Shown piece after piece: positions 6,398 through 23,782 of a stretch of DNA of 24,000 bases; position 1 is the stretch's first letter, and the number at the start of each line of letters is the position of its first letter. The position numbers were made by a program, and so were the translations under genes. The notes beneath the pieces are model-generated. The model worked only from the letters and a program-made list of their open reading frames with translations. It ran no database searches and was not told the DNA's origin. Source of the stretch: Candidatus Calditenuaceae archaeon HR02 (GTDB lineage: Archaea > Thermoproteota > Nitrososphaeria_A > Caldarchaeales > Calditenuaceae); NCBI GenBank assembly GCA_002898395.1, contig BEHE01000007.1, positions 3,631 through 27,630 of the forward strand, written 5' to 3'.

Positions 6398-6436
6398 CGT
6401 AGTCTAATATTCCTATTAATATAAGCTAAGATAAAG

Positions 6437-6444
6437 CTAATATA
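6437..6444 (+). promoter_or_regulatory. TATA-like box for the oxidase-like operon
   Basis: CTAATATA centred about 31 nt upstream of the ATG at 6472, within an imperfect direct repeat (AAGCTAAGATA / AAGCTAATATA). Confidence 0.45.
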
Positions 6445-6471: not shown

Positions 6472-7026
6472 ATGCTGGGCACAGGATTTGGTGCGATACT
6501 GCTCCTTCTCTACCTCACCTCACCCTTCCTTATCATCTTCACACTACTCATGCTGCTGGCTTTCAGGAGAGGTAGAGGGGTAGTCAGCGTTGGGCTGGGA
6601 GAAAGGAAGGCTCGGGCTATAGAGGTGGCCTGGCTAATAGGTGTAGGCTTGGCTTGGACAGTCATAAACCTGGTCAGCATACCCTGGCTCCCGTGGCTCC
6701 AGCCACTGGCCGCTACAACTGGCCAGTCACCTTCAGAGCCTGCACAGGTCGTCAATGTTGAGGCCTTCATGTGGGGGTATACGCTCGACACCTATGAGGT
6801 CAGGACAGGTGCTGTAAAGTTTGTCTCCACCTCCCGAGACACGATCCACTCACTCACGATCTACTCGCCGCGGGGCGAAGTCCTCGCTACAGTGATGCTG
6901 ATGCCAGGCATGAAGGAGGAGCTGGTCCTAAACCTGTGGGAGCCTGGAGAGTACATCATCAGGTGCCTAGAGTTTTGTGGTGACGGCCACTCAGCAATGC
7001 TCTCAAAGCTCAGGGTGATGGGGTGA
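6472..7026 (+). CDS. heme-copper oxidase superfamily subunit II with a complete CuA site
   Basis: N-terminal TM helices plus a cupredoxin domain. CuA ligands are all present: H126 ... C165-L-E167-F-C169-G-D-G-H173-S-A-M176 (H ... CxExCxxxHxxM). Confidence 0.85.
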   Translation: MLGTGFGAILLLLYLTSPFLIIFTLLMLLAFRRGRGVVSVGLGERKARAIEVAWLIGVGLAWTVINLVSIPWLPWLQPLAATTGQSPSEPAQVVNVEAFMWGYTLDTYEVRTGAVKFVSTSRDTIHSLTIYSPRGEVLATVMLMPGMKEELVLNLWEPGEYIIRCLEFCGDGHSAMLSKLRVMG

Positions 7027-7027
7027 G

Positions 7028-8500
7028 ATGCTCTCGCAAATTAGGCTTGAGGATCTGACGTTCTATCCGAGGCTGATGGTTCTCTCCGCTATTGCCTGGT
7101 TCTTCGCGGGCGGAGTAGCCGGGCTCACAATGGTGGTCGCACACCTTACAGGCGCGCTCAGGGTCCCGGACTACAACATGCTCCTCACATTCCACGGACT
7201 GGTGATGCCTTTCGGCGGCTTATTCCAGCTCATGATGGGTCTCTCACTCCTGAGGGCGGGCTTCTGCTACGGCAAACCTGTGAAAGGGGTTCTAGTAAGA
7301 GCCGCATACATCACCCTCAACTTAGGCCTAATCCTACTGCTCGCAGGCATTTTTGCATTCCAAGTGAGAACGAGCTATACTCTAATGTTCCCACTACCGG
7401 CTGCGGGCGTCTTCAAGGGGCTCTGGCCGCTGGAAGGTCTAATAGTTTTTGTGTGGGGCATCATCTTAATACTAGCCGTTAACATCGCCCTATACCCAGC
7501 GGCGCTTGCGAGGCTGATCTTCGGTGGAAAGACACAAGAAGCCCTCGTGCTGGAGAGATTCGTGGGGACTATCAACCCCTCCGGGATGGCAAGCATGCTC
7601 CCCTACATCTTCATCATCCCCCCTCTCGGCTCCGCAATCACCATAGGTGCACTGACAATAGGTCTCGCGCTACTCGGCATAATACCTCTGAGCTCGGCGG
7701 GCTGGGTATTGCAGCCCTTAAACTTCAACTATCCCTTCTGGATCTGGGCCCACAACCTGATGGAGGCGATGGGCATAATGGCTTTGGGCACCGTCTACTG
7801 GCTCACCCCCCGCTATACAGCCGTGTTGGGAAGTTCTGAGGGTGTGGAGCCGAGGCTTTACAGCGAGAAGCTTGGCATCTTAGCGATTATATTCTATTCC
7901 GCCGCAGCGGTAATGGCCTTCCCACACCACCTATTCACAATGCCTACATCCCAGCCGGTGGGGCTTAGCTACACGGGCCAGGTAGCCAGCTGGCTGACAG
8001 GGTTCGGGGCGGCCTTCTCCGTCTTCAACGTACTCGCAACCGCATACGCCTTCGGCCTGAGGCTCACGCCCGCCTCTCTAGCAGCCATGCTCGGGTTTGC
8101 GGTCTACATAGTCGACGGATTCCTCGCGATGCAGCTGGGGACAATCGGCTGGGCGTACAGGCTTCACGGAACCTACGCAGTAACCGCTCACCTCATGACG
8201 ATACTCCTCGCTGTATCTCTAGTCTGGATAGGCGCACTCTATCACAGCTACAGACTCCTCTTCGGCACTGATGTAAACAGGAGGCTCGCATACATCCATA
8301 TCGTGTTGACAGCTGTGGCGGCGCTAGGCCTGTTTTATTTCATGGCCTTTATGGGAGGTTCTGGAGTCCCTAGAAGGGCCTACCCGCTTCCAATAGCCAG
8401 CGATGCAGGAGTGTTGGGTCTTGTGGGCTTTGGAGCAATTCTAGCAGCGGCCCAGACCATCTTCCTATTCCAGCTCTTTAAATCCCTGAAGGCAACATAG
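7028..8500 (+). CDS. divergent heme-copper oxidase superfamily subunit I (NOR-like active-site signature)
   Basis: The start is 1 nt after the subunit II stop. Helix II reads YNMLLTFH56G, helix VI FWIWAH242NLME246, helix VII FPH300H301LF and helix X LH380GTYAVTAH388LM390. This is about 12 TM helices in 490 aa. Confidence 0.85.
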   Translation: MLSQIRLEDLTFYPRLMVLSAIAWFFAGGVAGLTMVVAHLTGALRVPDYNMLLTFHGLVMPFGGLFQLMMGLSLLRAGFCYGKPVKGVLVRAAYITLNLGLILLLAGIFAFQVRTSYTLMFPLPAAGVFKGLWPLEGLIVFVWGIILILAVNIALYPAALARLIFGGKTQEALVLERFVGTINPSGMASMLPYIFIIPPLGSAITIGALTIGLALLGIIPLSSAGWVLQPLNFNYPFWIWAHNLMEAMGIMALGTVYWLTPRYTAVLGSSEGVEPRLYSEKLGILAIIFYSAAAVMAFPHHLFTMPTSQPVGLSYTGQVASWLTGFGAAFSVFNVLATAYAFGLRLTPASLAAMLGFAVYIVDGFLAMQLGTIGWAYRLHGTYAVTAHLMTILLAVSLVWIGALYHSYRLLFGTDVNRRLAYIHIVLTAVAALGLFYFMAFMGGSGVPRRAYPLPIASDAGVLGLVGFGAILAAAQTIFLFQLFKSLKAT

Positions 8501-8549: not shown

Positions 8550-9767
8550 TCACTCGAGGCTGTGCATCATCCGGAGTGCCATTACTATGCCGCCCAGATA
8601 TAGGGCAGAGATGGCAATTGTTGCGAGTGGTGTGCCAGGCGACCCGGCTAGGAACCAGGAGACCCTTAGCACGTTGCCGGCGTTGAGAAGGGCTGCAGGG
8701 TATAGTGTGAGGCCGGCGTAAGGGATTCTCGCCGACATTAGTCCAGGCATCAGTATTGGCGCGTAGGCGAGGATCATGTTGCCTATAAACCCGATGGCTA
8801 TAGAGTGTATGTATGCGTCCCTGAGAGTGTACCATAGCGGATGCGCCAGCAGCAGGCTGACCGAACTCGACGCAGATAAGAGACACCCTGCTAAAAGCCA
8901 GATTGACGCAACCCTGTACAGCGCCGAGAAGTATAGATACCTGACCCTATCCCTTTCCCTCATCCGCGCGTACTGCTCGCCTGACTTGACCCGTCTGAGG
9001 GCGTCGACAGAAACCACCCAGACAGCCGATGCCAGCAGATACCCTACGGATGCGGCCAGCTCCAGGGACTCGCTGTGAAGGAGTGCCGCTGCCGAGGCCG
9101 CTGCAGAGGATGCTGTGTGTAGTGGGGTGACCAGCCACCAAGCCCTCCTCCTCAGTTTAGTGTCCACCCGGAAGTGGACCGTCCTTATCCCAACACCCAT
9201 TACCATTCCAGCTGGAGCACCTAAGAGGAGTATCAGTAGTAGGCCTGGTCTGCCGAAGGCATGAGCGCTCTCAAGCTCAGCGAAAATTGTTAGGGCTAAG
9301 GAGAGAGGCATAAGTGTCATCGACGCAGATATGAGTGGGTCGGCTGCGGCCAGAGGGCCGGAGGGCCTACCCAGCGCCCATACGGAATAGAAGGCTGCAG
9401 AGGATGTACCTGCTAGAGCAGCTAGATAGCTGAAGAGCCAGGCCACAGTACCTGGCTCCGCAAAAGTGAAAAACCATACACCTACGGTCATGACTATGAG
9501 GGAAAAGACCCTGAGGCCGAGATAACTCGAGGGTTCCACGTTTTTGAAGCGCTGGACAAGAACCATCGCCACAGAGACTATGAAAACGTAGACGAATCCA
9601 AAGATCATTAGTTTGGGGTGTACCAGTGCTGACGGAGTGAAGGGTAGGGCGCCTGAGAGTGAGAGAAGCCACACCGCACCTAGAACAGCCCCTAGAACGC
9701 CGCTAATTGTTGCAAAAGACACCCCAAGTATGAGTACTAGTCGGGCAGACCGGAGTCTCTGCTCCAA
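8550..9767 (-). CDS. NnrS-like polytopic membrane protein (putative heme/copper protein of the NO-response family)
   Basis: About 12 TM helices in 405 aa. VH50PKLMIFGF resembles the NnrS H-x-H-E-M-x-F-G-F motif. IHSIAIGFIGNMILA resembles the second NnrS motif H-x-x-x-x-G-x-x-G-x-M-I-L-A. The predicted start is TTG, with a TATA-like TTTATTTTAA about 30-38 nt upstream. Confidence 0.5.
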   Translation of the reverse strand: MEQRLRSARLVLILGVSFATISGVLGAVLGAVWLLSLSGALPFTPSALVHPKLMIFGFVYVFIVSVAMVLVQRFKNVEPSSYLGLRVFSLIVMTVGVWFFTFAEPGTVAWLFSYLAALAGTSSAAFYSVWALGRPSGPLAAADPLISASMTLMPLSLALTIFAELESAHAFGRPGLLLILLLGAPAGMVMGVGIRTVHFRVDTKLRRRAWWLVTPLHTASSAAASAAALLHSESLELAASVGYLLASAVWVVSVDALRRVKSGEQYARMRERDRVRYLYFSALYRVASIWLLAGCLLSASSSVSLLLAHPLWYTLRDAYIHSIAIGFIGNMILAYAPILMPGLMSARIPYAGLTLYPAALLNAGNVLRVSWFLAGSPGTPLATIAISALYLGGIVMALRMMHSLE

Positions 9768-13876: not shown

Positions 13877-14063
13877 GTAGGATAAATTCTGTTAGACGCG
13901 TATTTCGGGCTTACCATACAGCTCAGAGGCACTATTAGACTCGGAGTTTGTCAAGGACTTGGGGACGATTATTAAAGCAAATCCCTACTCTACATAGAGC
14001 CTGTCAAGTCAGCATAAAGTAATGCAAGGCCTCGCCTTTACAAAATCCGTACGCACCCTTTTT

Positions 14064-14370
14064 GGGGGCGTGCGGCCCGTAGCCCTCCTTCTGTTTTAGG
14101 CGGGATTGGTCTTCTCGGCTCTCCGCGGGCCTCGCCGGCGCTTCTCATCGGCCCGGCGCGCCTTTCCCCGTCAGGGTCGCCCGTTTCATCCATTCTCCAC
14201 CACTCGTCGCCGCCTCTGGTTGGCGGGTCAACCTCATCTGCGGTGGAGGGGTCTCGTTTCTGTGGCGTTGCCGTGGGTCTCCCCGCCCACCTCGCGGTGG
14301 CTGACTGCACCGGTTGGGGGGAGGAACTTCCTCGGGAGCTACCCCGTGGCCCGCCCGGCCGCTCGCCCCC
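14064..14370 (-). ncRNA. rnpB: RNase P RNA, archaeal type A
   Basis: On the minus strand the 5' GGGGGCG(AGC)GGCC pairs with the 3' GGCCGCACGCCCCC to form P1. Other matches are CR-I-like GAGGAAGUUCC, GCCACAGAAACG, GAUGAAACGG, the AGNNNNAU element AGACCAAU and CR-V-like ACAGAAGGAGGGCUACGG. It is about 307 nt and very GC-rich relative to its flanks. Confidence 0.85.
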
Positions 14371-14393
14371 AATAAAGAAGATGGGCGGGGAAG

Positions 14394-14403
14394 GGTTTAT
14401 TCC
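14394..14403 (-). promoter_or_regulatory. TATA-like box (GGAATAAACC) for RNase P RNA, overlapping the xdhC-like stop codon
   Basis: Centred about 29 nt upstream of the inferred RNA 5' end at 14370. The TAA stop of the upstream CDS is 14397-14399. Confidence 0.35.
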
Positions 14404-15323
14404 TTGTCTTTGAGGGCAGTGGTGGTGCTGTCGCAAGATACGTTACTTAGAGATATTGCTGTCTCGGTCTCCTGGCTTGTCTGGGTCAGGCCGGCCTCGG
14501 CCTTCCTGGCCACAGGTACACCCCTAATTCTCGCCACCACCTCGGCCAATATTGAAAGAGCTATCTCCTCCGGCATCTTCGCGCCTATATCGATACCCGC
14601 GGGCGAGCTTATCCTTGCTATGAACTCTTCACGCACCCCCCTCTCCCTGAGAAGCTCCAGATTCCGCAGAGCCCTCTTCCTACTGGCCATCAGCCCCAAA
14701 TAGAGTGGTGTCTTCCCCGAGATGGCCTCGAGGACCTTAACATCCCTCTCCCCCTTAGTCAAGACTACGACGCAGTCCCGGGGCCCTATCTCCAGTTTGG
14801 AGAGGTCGAAGTCTATATCTGATATCAGCCTGTCAGGCTCCGCCTCCAACATAGGCATAGGGTCGATGACCCAGACCTCGAAGCCTAGGATCTTCCCAAT
14901 CCTGACCAGGGCCTCCTCCACATCATCCTTCCCTCCCTGGCCTATGATGAATAGACGCCTCGCAGGCGTAATCGGGTCGACAAAGATCTCCATAGTACCT
15001 CCACAGAAGGTCTCGACGAATATCTCATCCCTGCTACCCGAGGTGGCCATACCCCTCACAGCCTCCTCTGTGCTCTCGAGATGCACCTTAACCAGCCTAG
15101 GCTCCTCCTCCCTTATACACTCTAATGCTATAGAGATGATAGGGCCCTCTGGACAGACTCCCCCCAGAGTCCCATAGACAATCTCCCCCTTATCATCAAC
15201 CACCATTTTAAACCCTGGCTTCCCCAGGCTTGAGCCGGAAACCCGAACAACCGTAGCGACAGCATAAGGGCGCCGCTCAGCCTCAAGCCTAGAGAGAGCC
15301 TCACCCAGAGACCTATATGGCAT
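14397..15323 (-). CDS. XdhC/CoxI-family accessory protein (N-terminal XdhC domain plus Rossmann-like domain)
   Basis: The N-terminus ...RRPYAVATVVRVSGSSLGKPGFKMVV ... GGVCPEG is typical of XdhC. The central region is LFIIGQGGKD Rossmann-like. Confidence 0.8.
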   Translation of the reverse strand: MPYRSLGEALSRLEAERRPYAVATVVRVSGSSLGKPGFKMVVDDKGEIVYGTLGGVCPEGPIISIALECIREEEPRLVKVHLESTEEAVRGMATSGSRDEIFVETFCGGTMEIFVDPITPARRLFIIGQGGKDDVEEALVRIGKILGFEVWVIDPMPMLEAEPDRLISDIDFDLSKLEIGPRDCVVVLTKGERDVKVLEAISGKTPLYLGLMASRKRALRNLELLRERGVREEFIARISSPAGIDIGAKMPEEIALSILAEVVARIRGVPVARKAEAGLTQTSQETETAISLSNVSCDSTTTALKDKE

Positions 15324-22091: not shown

Positions 22092-22194
22092 GCCCTGCCT
22101 TTAATCCTGATATACGGTCTATTAAATACATCAACGAGTCCCATGTTTTGTATAGGCTGGTCTTTTTATATCATATTTGTGTAGGTATATGCAG

Positions 22195-22205
22195 TTTAAA
22201 TATAT
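22195..22205 (+). promoter_or_regulatory. TATA-like box for the rhodanese gene
   Basis: TTTAAATATAT centred about 34 nt upstream of the ATG at 22234. This argues against the longer ORF start at 22177. Confidence 0.45.
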
Positions 22206-22233
22206 CGATAATAGGGACCTAATACGATGGTAC

Positions 22234-23079
22234 ATGAGCGAAGAGCAGGAGTTACCGGTTCTGGTTTCCACCGAGTGGGTTGCGAAAAACCTCAACAGAC
22301 CCGATGTCCGTGTAGTTGAGGTCGACTATGACCCGCAGACAGCCTATTTTCAAGGACATGTGCGGGGGGCCGTCCTTTGGGACTGGAAAAAGGACATCAA
22401 CGATCCTATAGAGAGGAACATCATCAGTAAGGAGGGGTTCGAGTCCCTCTGCTCGCGTAGCGGAATCTCAAATGACACCCACATAGTCCTTTACGGCGAT
22501 TTCAACAACTGGTTTGCCGCCTTCGCATTCTGGGTTGCTAGACTTTACGGCCACCAGAAGTTGAGTATAATGGATGGTGGTAGGAAAAAGTGGATAGCTG
22601 AGGAGAGGGAGCTTGTGAAGGAGGCCCCTAGCCCAGCCCCGACCAGTTATAAGGTCACTAAGGTTCGATATGAGTATAGGATTCTTCTACCTGATGTCCG
22701 CGCAAGGCTCGGGAGCCCCACGGTAGCTTTAGTCGATGTGAGGTCGCCGGATGAGTATACTGGAAAAATCTTAGCTCCTCCCGAGTATCCTACAGAGCAC
22801 GCGCAGAGGGGAGGCCACATTCCTGGCGCAGTAAACATACCGTGGGCACGGGCACTTAACGAGGACGGCACCTTCAAACCCATCGAGGAGTTGAGAAGGC
22901 TCTACCAAGGCATGGGAGTGACGCCTGATAAAGAGGTGATAACCTACTGCAGGATTGGTGAGAGATCGTCCGTGACGTGGTTTGTTCTCAAGGAGTTGCT
23001 CAAGTATCCTAAAGTCAGGAACTATGATGGAAGCTGGAGCGAGTGGGGCAACGTAGTCGGCACACCAATAGAGAAATAA
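22234..23079 (+). CDS. tandem-domain rhodanese (thiosulfate/3-mercaptopyruvate sulfurtransferase family)
   Basis: Two rhodanese domains. The active-site loop is YCRIGERSS in the C-terminal domain, followed by [10 protein letters not shown] chose the start at M20 of the track ORF from the promoter position. Confidence 0.85.
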
Positions 23080-23104
23080 GCCGAGAGGGTAGTTATCCTA
23101 GGCT

Positions 23105-23782
23105 GTGGTGGAAGAAATCCAAGCCTGCGGCTTCTCGAGCAACCACCTATACTTTCTCGAAGAGATGCTGTGGCTGAGCCCGATTCGGGACAGAGTTTTT
23201 AGAGTCGGAATACTACCAATTACTCAGACTCTTTGGGGTAAGGTAACCTCAGTAAGTGTTAAGCAGCCTGGTGACGAGGTTGCGGCGAACAGGGCTATCT
23301 GCCTTATAGAATCCCGTAGATTCTTAGGCAATGTCAGGGCTCCTTTCGACCTGAGGATAGAGCGCCTCAACATGGAGGCTGTTGAGCGGCCTTGGATTTT
23401 GCAGAGGGGCTTCGGCGAGGCTGCCTGGCTCTGCGAAGTGGCCGCCTTAGAGGATAATTGCTTGACCAGGCTGAAGAGTTGGAGCGAGATAAGGGGGGAG
23501 GTAGAGAGGATGATCAGCGAGAAGGGGATAATCTGTTTCAGAGAAGTGCCAGACTATGTACACGCCGCGATCGGGATTGACTGTAGCCAGCTACTTATGG
23601 TGCTCTCAGACAAACTTGAAGGTCTTCCTGAGGGAAGCATCATCCACATAGTTGCCGACTATAATGAGGGGGCTGAGAAGGATTTGGAGAAGTGGAGCAG
23701 AATTACGGGGAACGAGGTGCTGGACTTTAGGGTAGAGAAGAGGCTTGCCCACGCGCTGATTCGCCGTAGGACCCAATTTTAG
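23105..23782 (+). CDS. fusion of a GcvH-like domain (lipoyl-lysine replaced by Arg) and a TusA/SirA-like domain
   Basis: The N-terminal half aligns by eye to GcvH: LYFLEEMLWL ~ LKYSKEHEWL, VGI, and ESRRF in place of ESVKA. The C-terminal half aligns to TusA: GIDCSQLLM ... GSIIHIVADYNEGAEKDLEKWSRITGNEV ... ALIRRR versus GLRCPEPVM ... ADDP ... DI ... IRK. The GTG start lies 25 nt after the rhodanese stop. Confidence 0.65.
   Translation: MVEEIQACGFSSNHLYFLEEMLWLSPIRDRVFRVGILPITQTLWGKVTSVSVKQPGDEVAANRAICLIESRRFLGNVRAPFDLRIERLNMEAVERPWILQRGFGEAAWLCEVAALEDNCLTRLKSWSEIRGEVERMISEKGIICFREVPDYVHAAIGIDCSQLLMVLSDKLEGLPEGSIIHIVADYNEGAEKDLEKWSRITGNEVLDFRVEKRLAHALIRRRTQF

Follow-up and report, generated by a model that had tools for sequence, protein, structure and literature searches.

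A gene pair of the nNOR family, with glutamate in place of the cross-linked tyrosine of oxygen reductases, in Candidatus Calditenuaceae archaeon HR02

The window analysed here, a stretch of 24,000 nucleotides from Candidatus Calditenuaceae archaeon HR02 (GenBank assembly GCA_002898395.1, contig BEHE01000007.1, positions 3,631 to 27,630 of the forward strand), carries two adjacent genes for a small cupredoxin subunit and a twelve-helix subunit I of the heme-copper oxidase (HCO) superfamily. Judged by the sequences of both subunits, the pair almost certainly belongs to nNOR, a published family of predicted nitric oxide (NO) reductases (NORs). The elements of the pair, in window coordinates, are the following.

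6472–7026, + strand: nNOR subunit II (GBC71034.1), 184 residues, with two N-terminal hydrophobic helices and a cupredoxin domain
6847–6849, 6964–6966, and 6970–6972, + strand: H126, C165, and E167 of the predicted CuA site of subunit II
6976–6978, 6988–6990, and 6997–6999, + strand: C169, H173, and M176 of the same site
7028–8500, + strand: nNOR subunit I (GBC71035.1), 490 residues, with 12 transmembrane helices
7193–7195, + strand: H56 in helix II, predicted first axial ligand of the low-spin heme, invariant and aligned with NorB H53
7751–7765, + strand: metal-B motif H242-N-L-M-E246 in helix VI, from the translation, the alignments, and family invariance
7796–8041, + strand: putative K-channel-like path, comprising Y257 (7796–7798), Y263 (7814–7816), S331 (8018–8020), N334 (8027–8029), and T338 (8039–8041)
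7925–7930, + strand: H300-H301 in helix VII, predicted remaining two metal-B ligands, invariant and aligned with NorB and bovine COX1
8189–8197, + strand: H388-L-M390 in helix X, from alignments with COX1 and NorB

The TGA of subunit II (7024–7026) lies one base ahead of the ATG of subunit I, and in this subunit II–I order the upstream gene is kept in all complete nNOR loci; the gene pair is the only unit conserved across the nNOR lineages. Subunit I, labeled in GenBank as 'Alternative cytochrome c oxidase subunit 1', matches the Pfam family COX1 (PF00115) over residues 16–454 (E, 1.2e-32), and scores far under the trusted cut-off of every oxidase model in NCBIfam. Its AlphaFold (AF2) model, built with 21 homologues as input, consists of 12 long helices (predicted local distance difference test score (pLDDT), 86; predicted template-modeling score (pTM), 0.90) and resembles COX1 structures in a Foldseek search (template-modeling (TM) score, 0.83). 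Subunit II shows weak matches to the COX2/CoxB profiles, with the best PDB match to the subunit II, or CuA domain, of Thermus thermophilus ba3 oxidase (E, 1e-8). Its CuA ligands are invariant in five orthologues of 40–79% identity, and E167 occupies the backbone-carbonyl position of a complete CuA site. An earlier note on this DNA, made from the sequence alone, had described just such a coupled upstream gene with a complete CuA site.

Helix VI of subunit I reads PFWIWAHNLMEAMG, and the H242-x3-E246 motif that the earlier note had seen in it was confirmed by translation and by a direct check of the codon positions (H242, 7751–7753; E246, 7763–7765), which likewise placed H56, H300/H301, H388 (8189–8191), and M390 (8195–8197). 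In a phmmer search against the PDB, the segment WAHNLME aligned onto FGHPEVY of mammalian COX1, with H242 on bovine H240 and E246 on Y244, in line with the alignment proposed earlier between this helix and the GHPxVY segment of A/B-type oxygen reductases. The segments PHHLF and TAHLM aligned onto AHHMF and VAHFH, respectively, with H300/H301 on bovine H290/H291, H388 on H376, and M390 on H378, a ligand of the low-spin heme. For comparison with the cytochrome c-dependent NOR (cNOR), an authentic NorB was found in an unannotated pSymA record of Sinorhizobium meliloti through its signature HLWVEGVWE, and was verified against the PDB (4xyd_A, 2e-199; 3o0r_B, 1e-155). An hhalign comparison of the family profile with this NorB gave only a spurious 40-column match (21% probability) and was replaced by a MAFFT alignment with bridging sequences, in which H56, H242, E246, H300, H301, and H388 fall on NorB H53, H186, E190, H237, H238, and H326, and M390 falls on NorB H328. 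E190 is the Glu of the NorB HLWVE motif, and the earlier equation of the i+4 Glu with the FeB-ligand Glu of NorB thus agrees with the alignment.

These alignments identify H242 as a predicted metal-B ligand, and E246 as the residue that replaces the cross-linked Tyr of oxygen reductases, where cNOR has its FeB-ligating Glu. H388 is assigned as the proximal ligand of the high-spin heme, and M390 stands in place of the canonical second His, predicting a low-spin heme with His/Met ligation. The HH pair and the helix-X His had been described as intact in the earlier note; H300/H301 and H388 are indeed present, and the exchange of the low-spin heme ligand His for M390 had been overlooked. The Arg pair at the heme propionates (R449/R450) and every other cofactor ligand are retained. 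A Tyr at the helix-VII position used by the C-family of oxygen reductases, six residues before H300, was also looked for, but residue 294 is a nearly invariant Ala, and the invariant Y290 lies, in sequence position, 10 residues before the HH pair, compared with six for the C-family Tyr. A substitute Tyr from helix VII, considered in the earlier note, therefore appears to be lacking at that position, and the authors of PMC11214002 found no alternative Tyr in these NOR families either.

The extent of the family was surveyed in two ways: 5.8 billion proteins were searched with a word index, and 1.84 billion representatives were scanned exhaustively with HMMER. The word-indexed search returned ~30 nNOR clusters at E < 1e-78; with the family profile these score below 1e-130, and the next matches drop to 1e-15; the scan of the representatives found 781 relatives, only 13 of them scoring below 1e-30. 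The nNOR family is small and sharply bounded, and its named members are from Aigarchaeota/Caldarchaeales, a Pyrobaculum metagenome-assembled genome, and Thermoflexus. In an alignment of the HR02 protein with 23 members (down to ~40% identity, from Archaea and Bacteria) and 32 out-group sequences, the motifs H-[N/T]-L-M-E, HH, and H-x-M are found in all 24 family sequences. Helix X reads H-x-H in each of the 32 out-group sequences, where the i+4 position of helix VI is Asn or Tyr, except for Phe or Leu in the unclassified P0120 and P0165. The latter two, also homologues of HCO subunit I, have Q-H for the helix-VII H-H and no helix-VI Tyr (GHPARF and AHPATL). The ratio of nonsynonymous to synonymous substitution rates (dN/dS) against an orthologue of 86% identity comes to 0.08 in subunit I and 0.10 in subunit II, and both subunits are under purifying selection. 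The earlier view of the site as functional rather than decayed is upheld by the low ratio for subunit I and by the invariance of the substituted residues in the 24 sequences.

A neighbor-joining tree with capped distances and 60 bootstrap replicates was calculated from our own sequence set, which is not a curated reference set. The clade with the H-x3-E and H-x-M motifs is monophyletic in 60/60 replicates, and a superclade that unites nNOR with sequences carrying H-x3-N (the sNOR/bNOR motif) and GHPVVY (B-like), apart from the A-family, was likewise recovered in 60/60; inside it, the sister relation is divided between 26 and 34 of the 60 replicates. As far as this sequence set allows, the tree is compatible with the published placement of nNOR, related to the B-family and near sNOR. 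The nearest relatives of the family are CuA-type sequences, not NorB, and the nearest outside the family carry H-x3-N, HHLYMD, and H-F-H, a combination assigned to sNOR/bNOR by motif alone, which would fit the published closeness of nNOR and sNOR.

The nNOR family was first named in 2019 (bioRxiv 592808), where it was called close to sNOR and its His/Met trait was stated, and was described further in bioRxiv 10.1101/2021.10.15.464467 and by Murali et al. (PNAS 2024; PMC11214002). In the latter paper, nNOR is one of four families with a CuA subunit that are related to B-type oxidases, and its active-site residues are those of cNOR and the quinol-dependent NOR (qNOR), i.e., three His and a Glu, without Tyr; the His/Met trait is stated in that paper as well. 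Supplementary Table 1 of the 2021 preprint takes Aigarchaeota archaeon SCGC AAA471-B22 as the nNOR reference, and lists nNOR E-242 in the row of ba3 Y-237. A homologue that is 75% identical to the HR02 protein and represents 62 IMG sequences (P0004) has exactly the published reference numbering. The first row of Supplementary Table 4 of the same preprint is the assembly analysed here, GCA_002898395.1 (Caldarchaeales, family HR02, genus HRBIN02), with counts of NNOR = 2, GNOR = 1, nirK = 1, nosD = 1, and nosZ = 1; nosZ in HR02 has been reported independently (PMC5877337). The count of two, by which the genome is recognised with the HMM of the family's authors, agrees with the two HR02 paralogues, GBC71035.1 and GBC72117.1, the latter (P0008) being encoded on another contig (L007:853–2331) and 67% identical. 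HR02 would hold three putative NORs (two nNOR and one gNOR) in a genome of ~1.5 Mb, a figure taken from a near-complete contig of a related genome. The same table gives NNOR = 1 for GCA_009889515.1, which holds a locus syntenic with the window (L003), and ENOR = 1 and NNOR = 1 for Thermoflexus hugenholtzii; a paper on the eNOR of Chloroflexi mentions neither Thermoflexus nor nNOR.

Since HR02 is listed there with two nNORs, the gene has already been classified in print; the family is published and the source genome is counted in the preprint's tables, and thus the gene is already known and the enzyme is no new kind of enzyme. In its sequences, the HR02 pair has E246, the three metal-B His, H56/M390, a CuA subunit II, and all five channel residues of the family. 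The earlier note had spoken of a CuA-dependent, NOR-like, non-canonical HCO member without naming its family, which can now be given as nNOR, and the protein does not fall within any characterised family of oxygen reductases. The crenarchaeal context assumed there needs to be adjusted, as the host is an aigarchaeon (Caldarchaeales, placed in Thermoproteota in GTDB) and not a classical crenarchaeon.

The residues Y257, Y263, S331, N334, and T338 of subunit I match one-to-one the published nNOR residues Y-253, Y-259, (S/T)-324, (N/T)-327, and T-331. The numbering is offset from the published reference by +4, and then by +7 past a loop in which the HR02 protein has three additional residues. Throughout the family alignment, position 331 is S or T and position 334 is N or T; S331 aligned with bovine K319 in the phmmer search against the PDB. 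Read from these positions, the residues from Y257 to T338 form a putative path for proton conduction.

In comparison with the published nNOR, the Glu at the Tyr position, the three metal-B His, the His/Met heme, the CuA subunit, and the channel residues of the HR02 pair all match, and there is no substantive difference; the HR02 copy is one of two paralogues. The metal-B ligand set and its spacing (H-x3-E and HH) are identical to those of cNOR and qNOR (3O0R from Pseudomonas aeruginosa and 3AYF from Geobacillus stearothermophilus), which also share the lack of a cross-linked Tyr and the helix-X His on the high-spin heme. cNOR and qNOR receive electrons via the cytochrome c subunit NorC or via a quinol site with an N-terminal extension, whereas the HR02 pair has a CuA cupredoxin, and its subunit I of 490 residues is without an extension such as that of qNOR. 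The low-spin heme is bis-His in cNOR/qNOR and predicted to be His/Met in nNOR, and protons are taken from the periplasm in cNOR, whereas nNOR has the K-channel-like polar path. The published tree puts nNOR with the B-family and cNOR/qNOR with the C-family, so that the cNOR-like active site of nNOR would have arisen by convergence.

Among the CuA-containing relatives, sNOR and bNOR resemble nNOR in the CuA-type subunit II, the absence of the Tyr, and the K-channel-like residues, but have Asn at the i+4 position instead of Glu, and a bis-His low-spin heme. The B-family ba3 oxidase of T. thermophilus (1EHK) has a single K-type channel, in which ba3 Y248 and T312 correspond in position to Y257 and S331; it provides the closest solved subunit II, and GHPVVY-type relatives belong to the same superclade as nNOR. 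It differs in its His–Tyr cofactor (Y237), CuB, and bis-His low-spin heme. The eNOR of Rhodothermus marinus is, like nNOR, an oxidase-derived CuA-type NOR without the Tyr and with a K-like channel, and some eNOR members also have an altered ligand of the low-spin heme (His/Lys); in eNOR, however, the Tyr is replaced by Gln (Q-245), and the family forms a separate clade; Thermoflexus hugenholtzii has one enzyme of each family. eNOR is the only experimentally verified member of the new families in PMC11214002, and bNOR had been characterised earlier.

While the ligand inventory is established by sequence, the following mechanism is drawn from it together with knowledge of the family. An external donor of single electrons, probably a cytochrome or a blue-copper protein, would reduce the binuclear CuA in subunit II, from which the electron would pass to the low-spin heme held by H56 and M390. 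The His/Met ligation is expected to raise the potential of this heme, by ~150 mV as estimated for nNOR by the authors of PMC11214002. The electron would then reach the high-spin heme (H388) and the non-heme metal B, coordinated by H242, H300, H301, and the carboxylate of E246. Because its ligand set is the FeB set of cNOR/qNOR, metal B is probably iron. The site, having no cross-linkable Tyr, would suit the two-electron reduction of NO (2 NO + 2 e− + 2 H+ → N2O + H2O) rather than the four-electron reduction of O2. Protons from the cytoplasm may enter along Y257, Y263, S331, N334, and T338, and such delivery would render NO reduction electrogenic, unlike that by cNOR. Physiologically, nNOR may stand between NirK, as the source of NO, and NosZ, as the consumer of nitrous oxide (N2O), or may detoxify NO. 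The best overall explanation is that the nNOR pair works as a CuA-fed NO reductase, which we regard as quite probable; that the HR02 pair is dedicated to NO reduction is a fairly likely reading of its sequence.

Several points weigh against this interpretation. The function of nNOR is so far a prediction, both by the authors who described the family and here, and Fe and Cu at metal B cannot be told apart by reading the sequence. The second active-site Glu that cNOR and qNOR carry one turn on in helix VI (E194 in S. meliloti NorB) has no counterpart in the HR02 subunit I, which reads H-N-L-M-E-A-M-G-I with hydrophobic residues at that place, where cNOR/qNOR read H-L-W-V-E-G-V-W-E. Searches of the PDB with subunit I, by sequence and by fold, ranked A-family COX1 above ba3, and a profile search with the family alignment recovered only A-family oxidases at E ≤ 1e-3, without ba3, cNOR, or cbb3; the relation to the B-family is therefore borne here by subunit II and the metagenomic neighbors only. 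No nir or nos gene or NO-responsive regulator lies beside nNOR in any of nine distinct loci (the window, the loci L001–L003 syntenic with it, and others). Calditenuis, a relative in culture, did not incorporate isotope when kept anaerobic (PMC12979851), which leaves a respiratory denitrifying role unproven.

Alternatively, the pair could be an unusual terminal O2 reductase, of low efficiency or high affinity, with a Glu-ligated metal B and serving aerobic Calditenuaceae. The published accounts present the Calditenuaceae as aerobic and detected no anaerobic activity in them (PMC12979851, PMC4681859); CuA, both hemes, and the K-like channel are kept as in oxidases, the nearest solved folds are oxidases, and the public annotations say cytochrome c oxidase. 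Slow O2 reduction by cNORs is also general knowledge. However, the His–Tyr cofactor, held to be necessary for O2 reduction in the A, B, and C families (PMC11214002), is absent here, with an invariant Glu at position 246 and Ala294 at the C-family position of helix VII. Purified eNOR, another enzyme without the Tyr, turned over NO and did not reduce O2 (PMC11214002). Moreover, at least one related genome has a separate A-family COX1–COX3 oxidase near its nNOR (L006). We consider an O2-reducing function unlikely.

The gene next to subunit I enters into a further explanation, and is described here together with the other nNOR loci.

8550–9767, − strand: polytopic membrane protein HRbin02_00813, 405 residues, convergent, with invariant H50, H198, H321, and H402

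HRbin02_00813 matches the Pfam family NnrS (PF05940) over its full length at E 6e-4, with 19.7 bits against a gathering cut-off of 28; two of its seven homologues match NnrS, and an hhalign comparison with authentic NnrS was not significant (E, 0.11). Its AF2 model has a pLDDT of 82. The protein is found in only nine clusters; three of these carry an organism name, in each case aigarchaeal (Calditenuaceae or Aigarchaeota). It lies beside nNOR in close relatives alone, and aligned over 76 columns with a hypothetical membrane protein from Cupriavidus pHG1 (hhalign probability, 83%; E, 9e-6); both contain the motif RDAxxHxxxxGFxxxMxxAxAPxxxP. The pHG1 protein and a Paraburkholderia membrane protein from the same tblastn search are encoded among genes for an Rrf2 regulator, hemerythrin, DUF2249, and NnrS. 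A tie of HRbin02_00813 to NO handling or to the Rrf2–hemerythrin clusters is a lead, not a result; the four-His membrane protein and its link to the Burkholderiaceae clusters appear to be the only undescribed thread at this locus.

In contrast to some other aigarchaeal nNOR loci, the HR02 lineage has no third gene downstream of the pair, and faces this lineage-restricted membrane protein instead. The third gene encodes a type-1 blue-copper protein (C-x2-P-G-H-x4-M) in L006:9476–9943, which is a plausible electron donor to CuA as judged from its motif, and a small membrane protein unrelated to it in L008:2115–2573 and L009:3917–4408; neither was found in a tblastn search of the window. A hemerythrin gene lies downstream of the Pyrobaculum nNOR. 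Genes for copper-type P-type ATPases occur near nNOR in distant lineages (L013:3373–5709, L014:4672–7008, L005:8807–9676, and L006:17036–17479), and may supply copper for CuA; no heavy-metal P-type ATPase gene is present in the HR02 window.

nNOR might also be a nitrogen-oxide enzyme that is not a respiratory NOR, serving either purely for NO detoxification, with expression in oxic or nitrosative stress, or for another reaction such as NO dismutation or N2O reduction. The lack of nir/nos linkage in the inspected loci would fit such a role, as would the weakly NnrS-like neighbor, with its motif common to a protein from Rrf2–hemerythrin–DUF2249–NnrS clusters on Burkholderiaceae plasmids, and the hemerythrin gene after the Pyrobaculum homologue; other offshoots of the HCO superfamily have been proposed as NO dismutase and N2O reductase (PMC11214002). 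The ligand set is, however, that of cNOR/qNOR and not of the proposed NO dismutase or N2O-reductase families, nirK and nosZ in the genome leave a place for a respiratory NOR, and the NnrS link is statistically weak; we hold a non-respiratory role to be unlikely. That the pair is a decaying cytochrome oxidase paralogue, which lost its Tyr and His by drift, is hardly credible: there are two genome copies of 67% identity and standard models score subunit I far under their trusted cut-offs, but dN/dS is 0.08 to 0.10, the substituted residues are invariant in 24/24 sequences from Archaea and Bacteria, the other cofactor ligands and R449/R450 are kept, and the predicted fold is confident. A decayed pseudogene was rejected on account of the dN/dS values and the invariance of the substituted residues.

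If nNOR is a CuA-fed NO reductase, it would unite a cNOR-type active site with electron entry through CuA and a putative cytoplasmic proton path, and with this combination it would offer a natural way to examine whether the reduction of NO can serve to conserve energy, a question already raised by the authors who described the family. A 2023 survey of Caldarchaeales genomes found nirK and nosZ and 'no nitric oxide reductase' (PMC10547907), and nNOR would be a natural candidate for the missing NO step. In its most specific form, the proposal reads that nNOR acts in HR02-type Calditenuaceae as an electrogenic CuA-fed NOR under oxic conditions at ~70 °C, between NirK and NosZ, with the protein encoded at 8550–9767 as a dedicated NO-handling partner, distantly akin to NnrS and to the pHG1 protein; taken as a whole it is doubtful, and if true it would amount to an energy-conserving step of aerobic denitrification in archaea. 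Of practical value are a correction of the annotation and a good candidate for expression, with HR02-type organisms growing in bioreactors at 65–70 °C. In the public databases, the protein encoded at 7028–8500 and four homologues (P0011, P0012, P0023, and P0028) are labeled 'Alternative cytochrome c oxidase subunit 1' or 'cbb3-type cytochrome c oxidase subunit I', and neither label suits a CuA-partnered enzyme without the Tyr.

The remaining features of the window are the following.

6416–6444, + strand: AT-rich region upstream of subunit II with two TATA-like boxes, TTAATATA (6416–6423) and CTAATATA (6437–6444), from reading of the sequence
14068–14366, − strand: archaeal RNase P RNA (Rfam RF00373, 156.8 bits, full length)
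22177–23782, + strand: tandem-rhodanese protein, followed by a fusion of glycine-cleavage-H-like and TusA-like domains

The ATG of subunit II follows the TATA-like boxes at distances of 56 and 35 nucleotides, and the boxes may form an archaeal promoter that would give a short-leader or leaderless transcript. The other genes of the window encode an M1 peptidase, an ABC ATPase, a PRTase, a C69 peptidase, an MFS transporter, a pterin-binding enzyme, XdhC, a radical SAM protein, AglB/STT3, and rhodanese, and are overall of a housekeeping kind. The open reading frames at 14038–14436 and 14314–14703, which overlap the RNase P RNA, are probably spurious; the RNA falls within the kilobase of highest G+C content in the window (0.59). 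The rhodanese gene and that of the H-like–TusA-like fusion look like a sulfur-relay pair, unrelated to nNOR.

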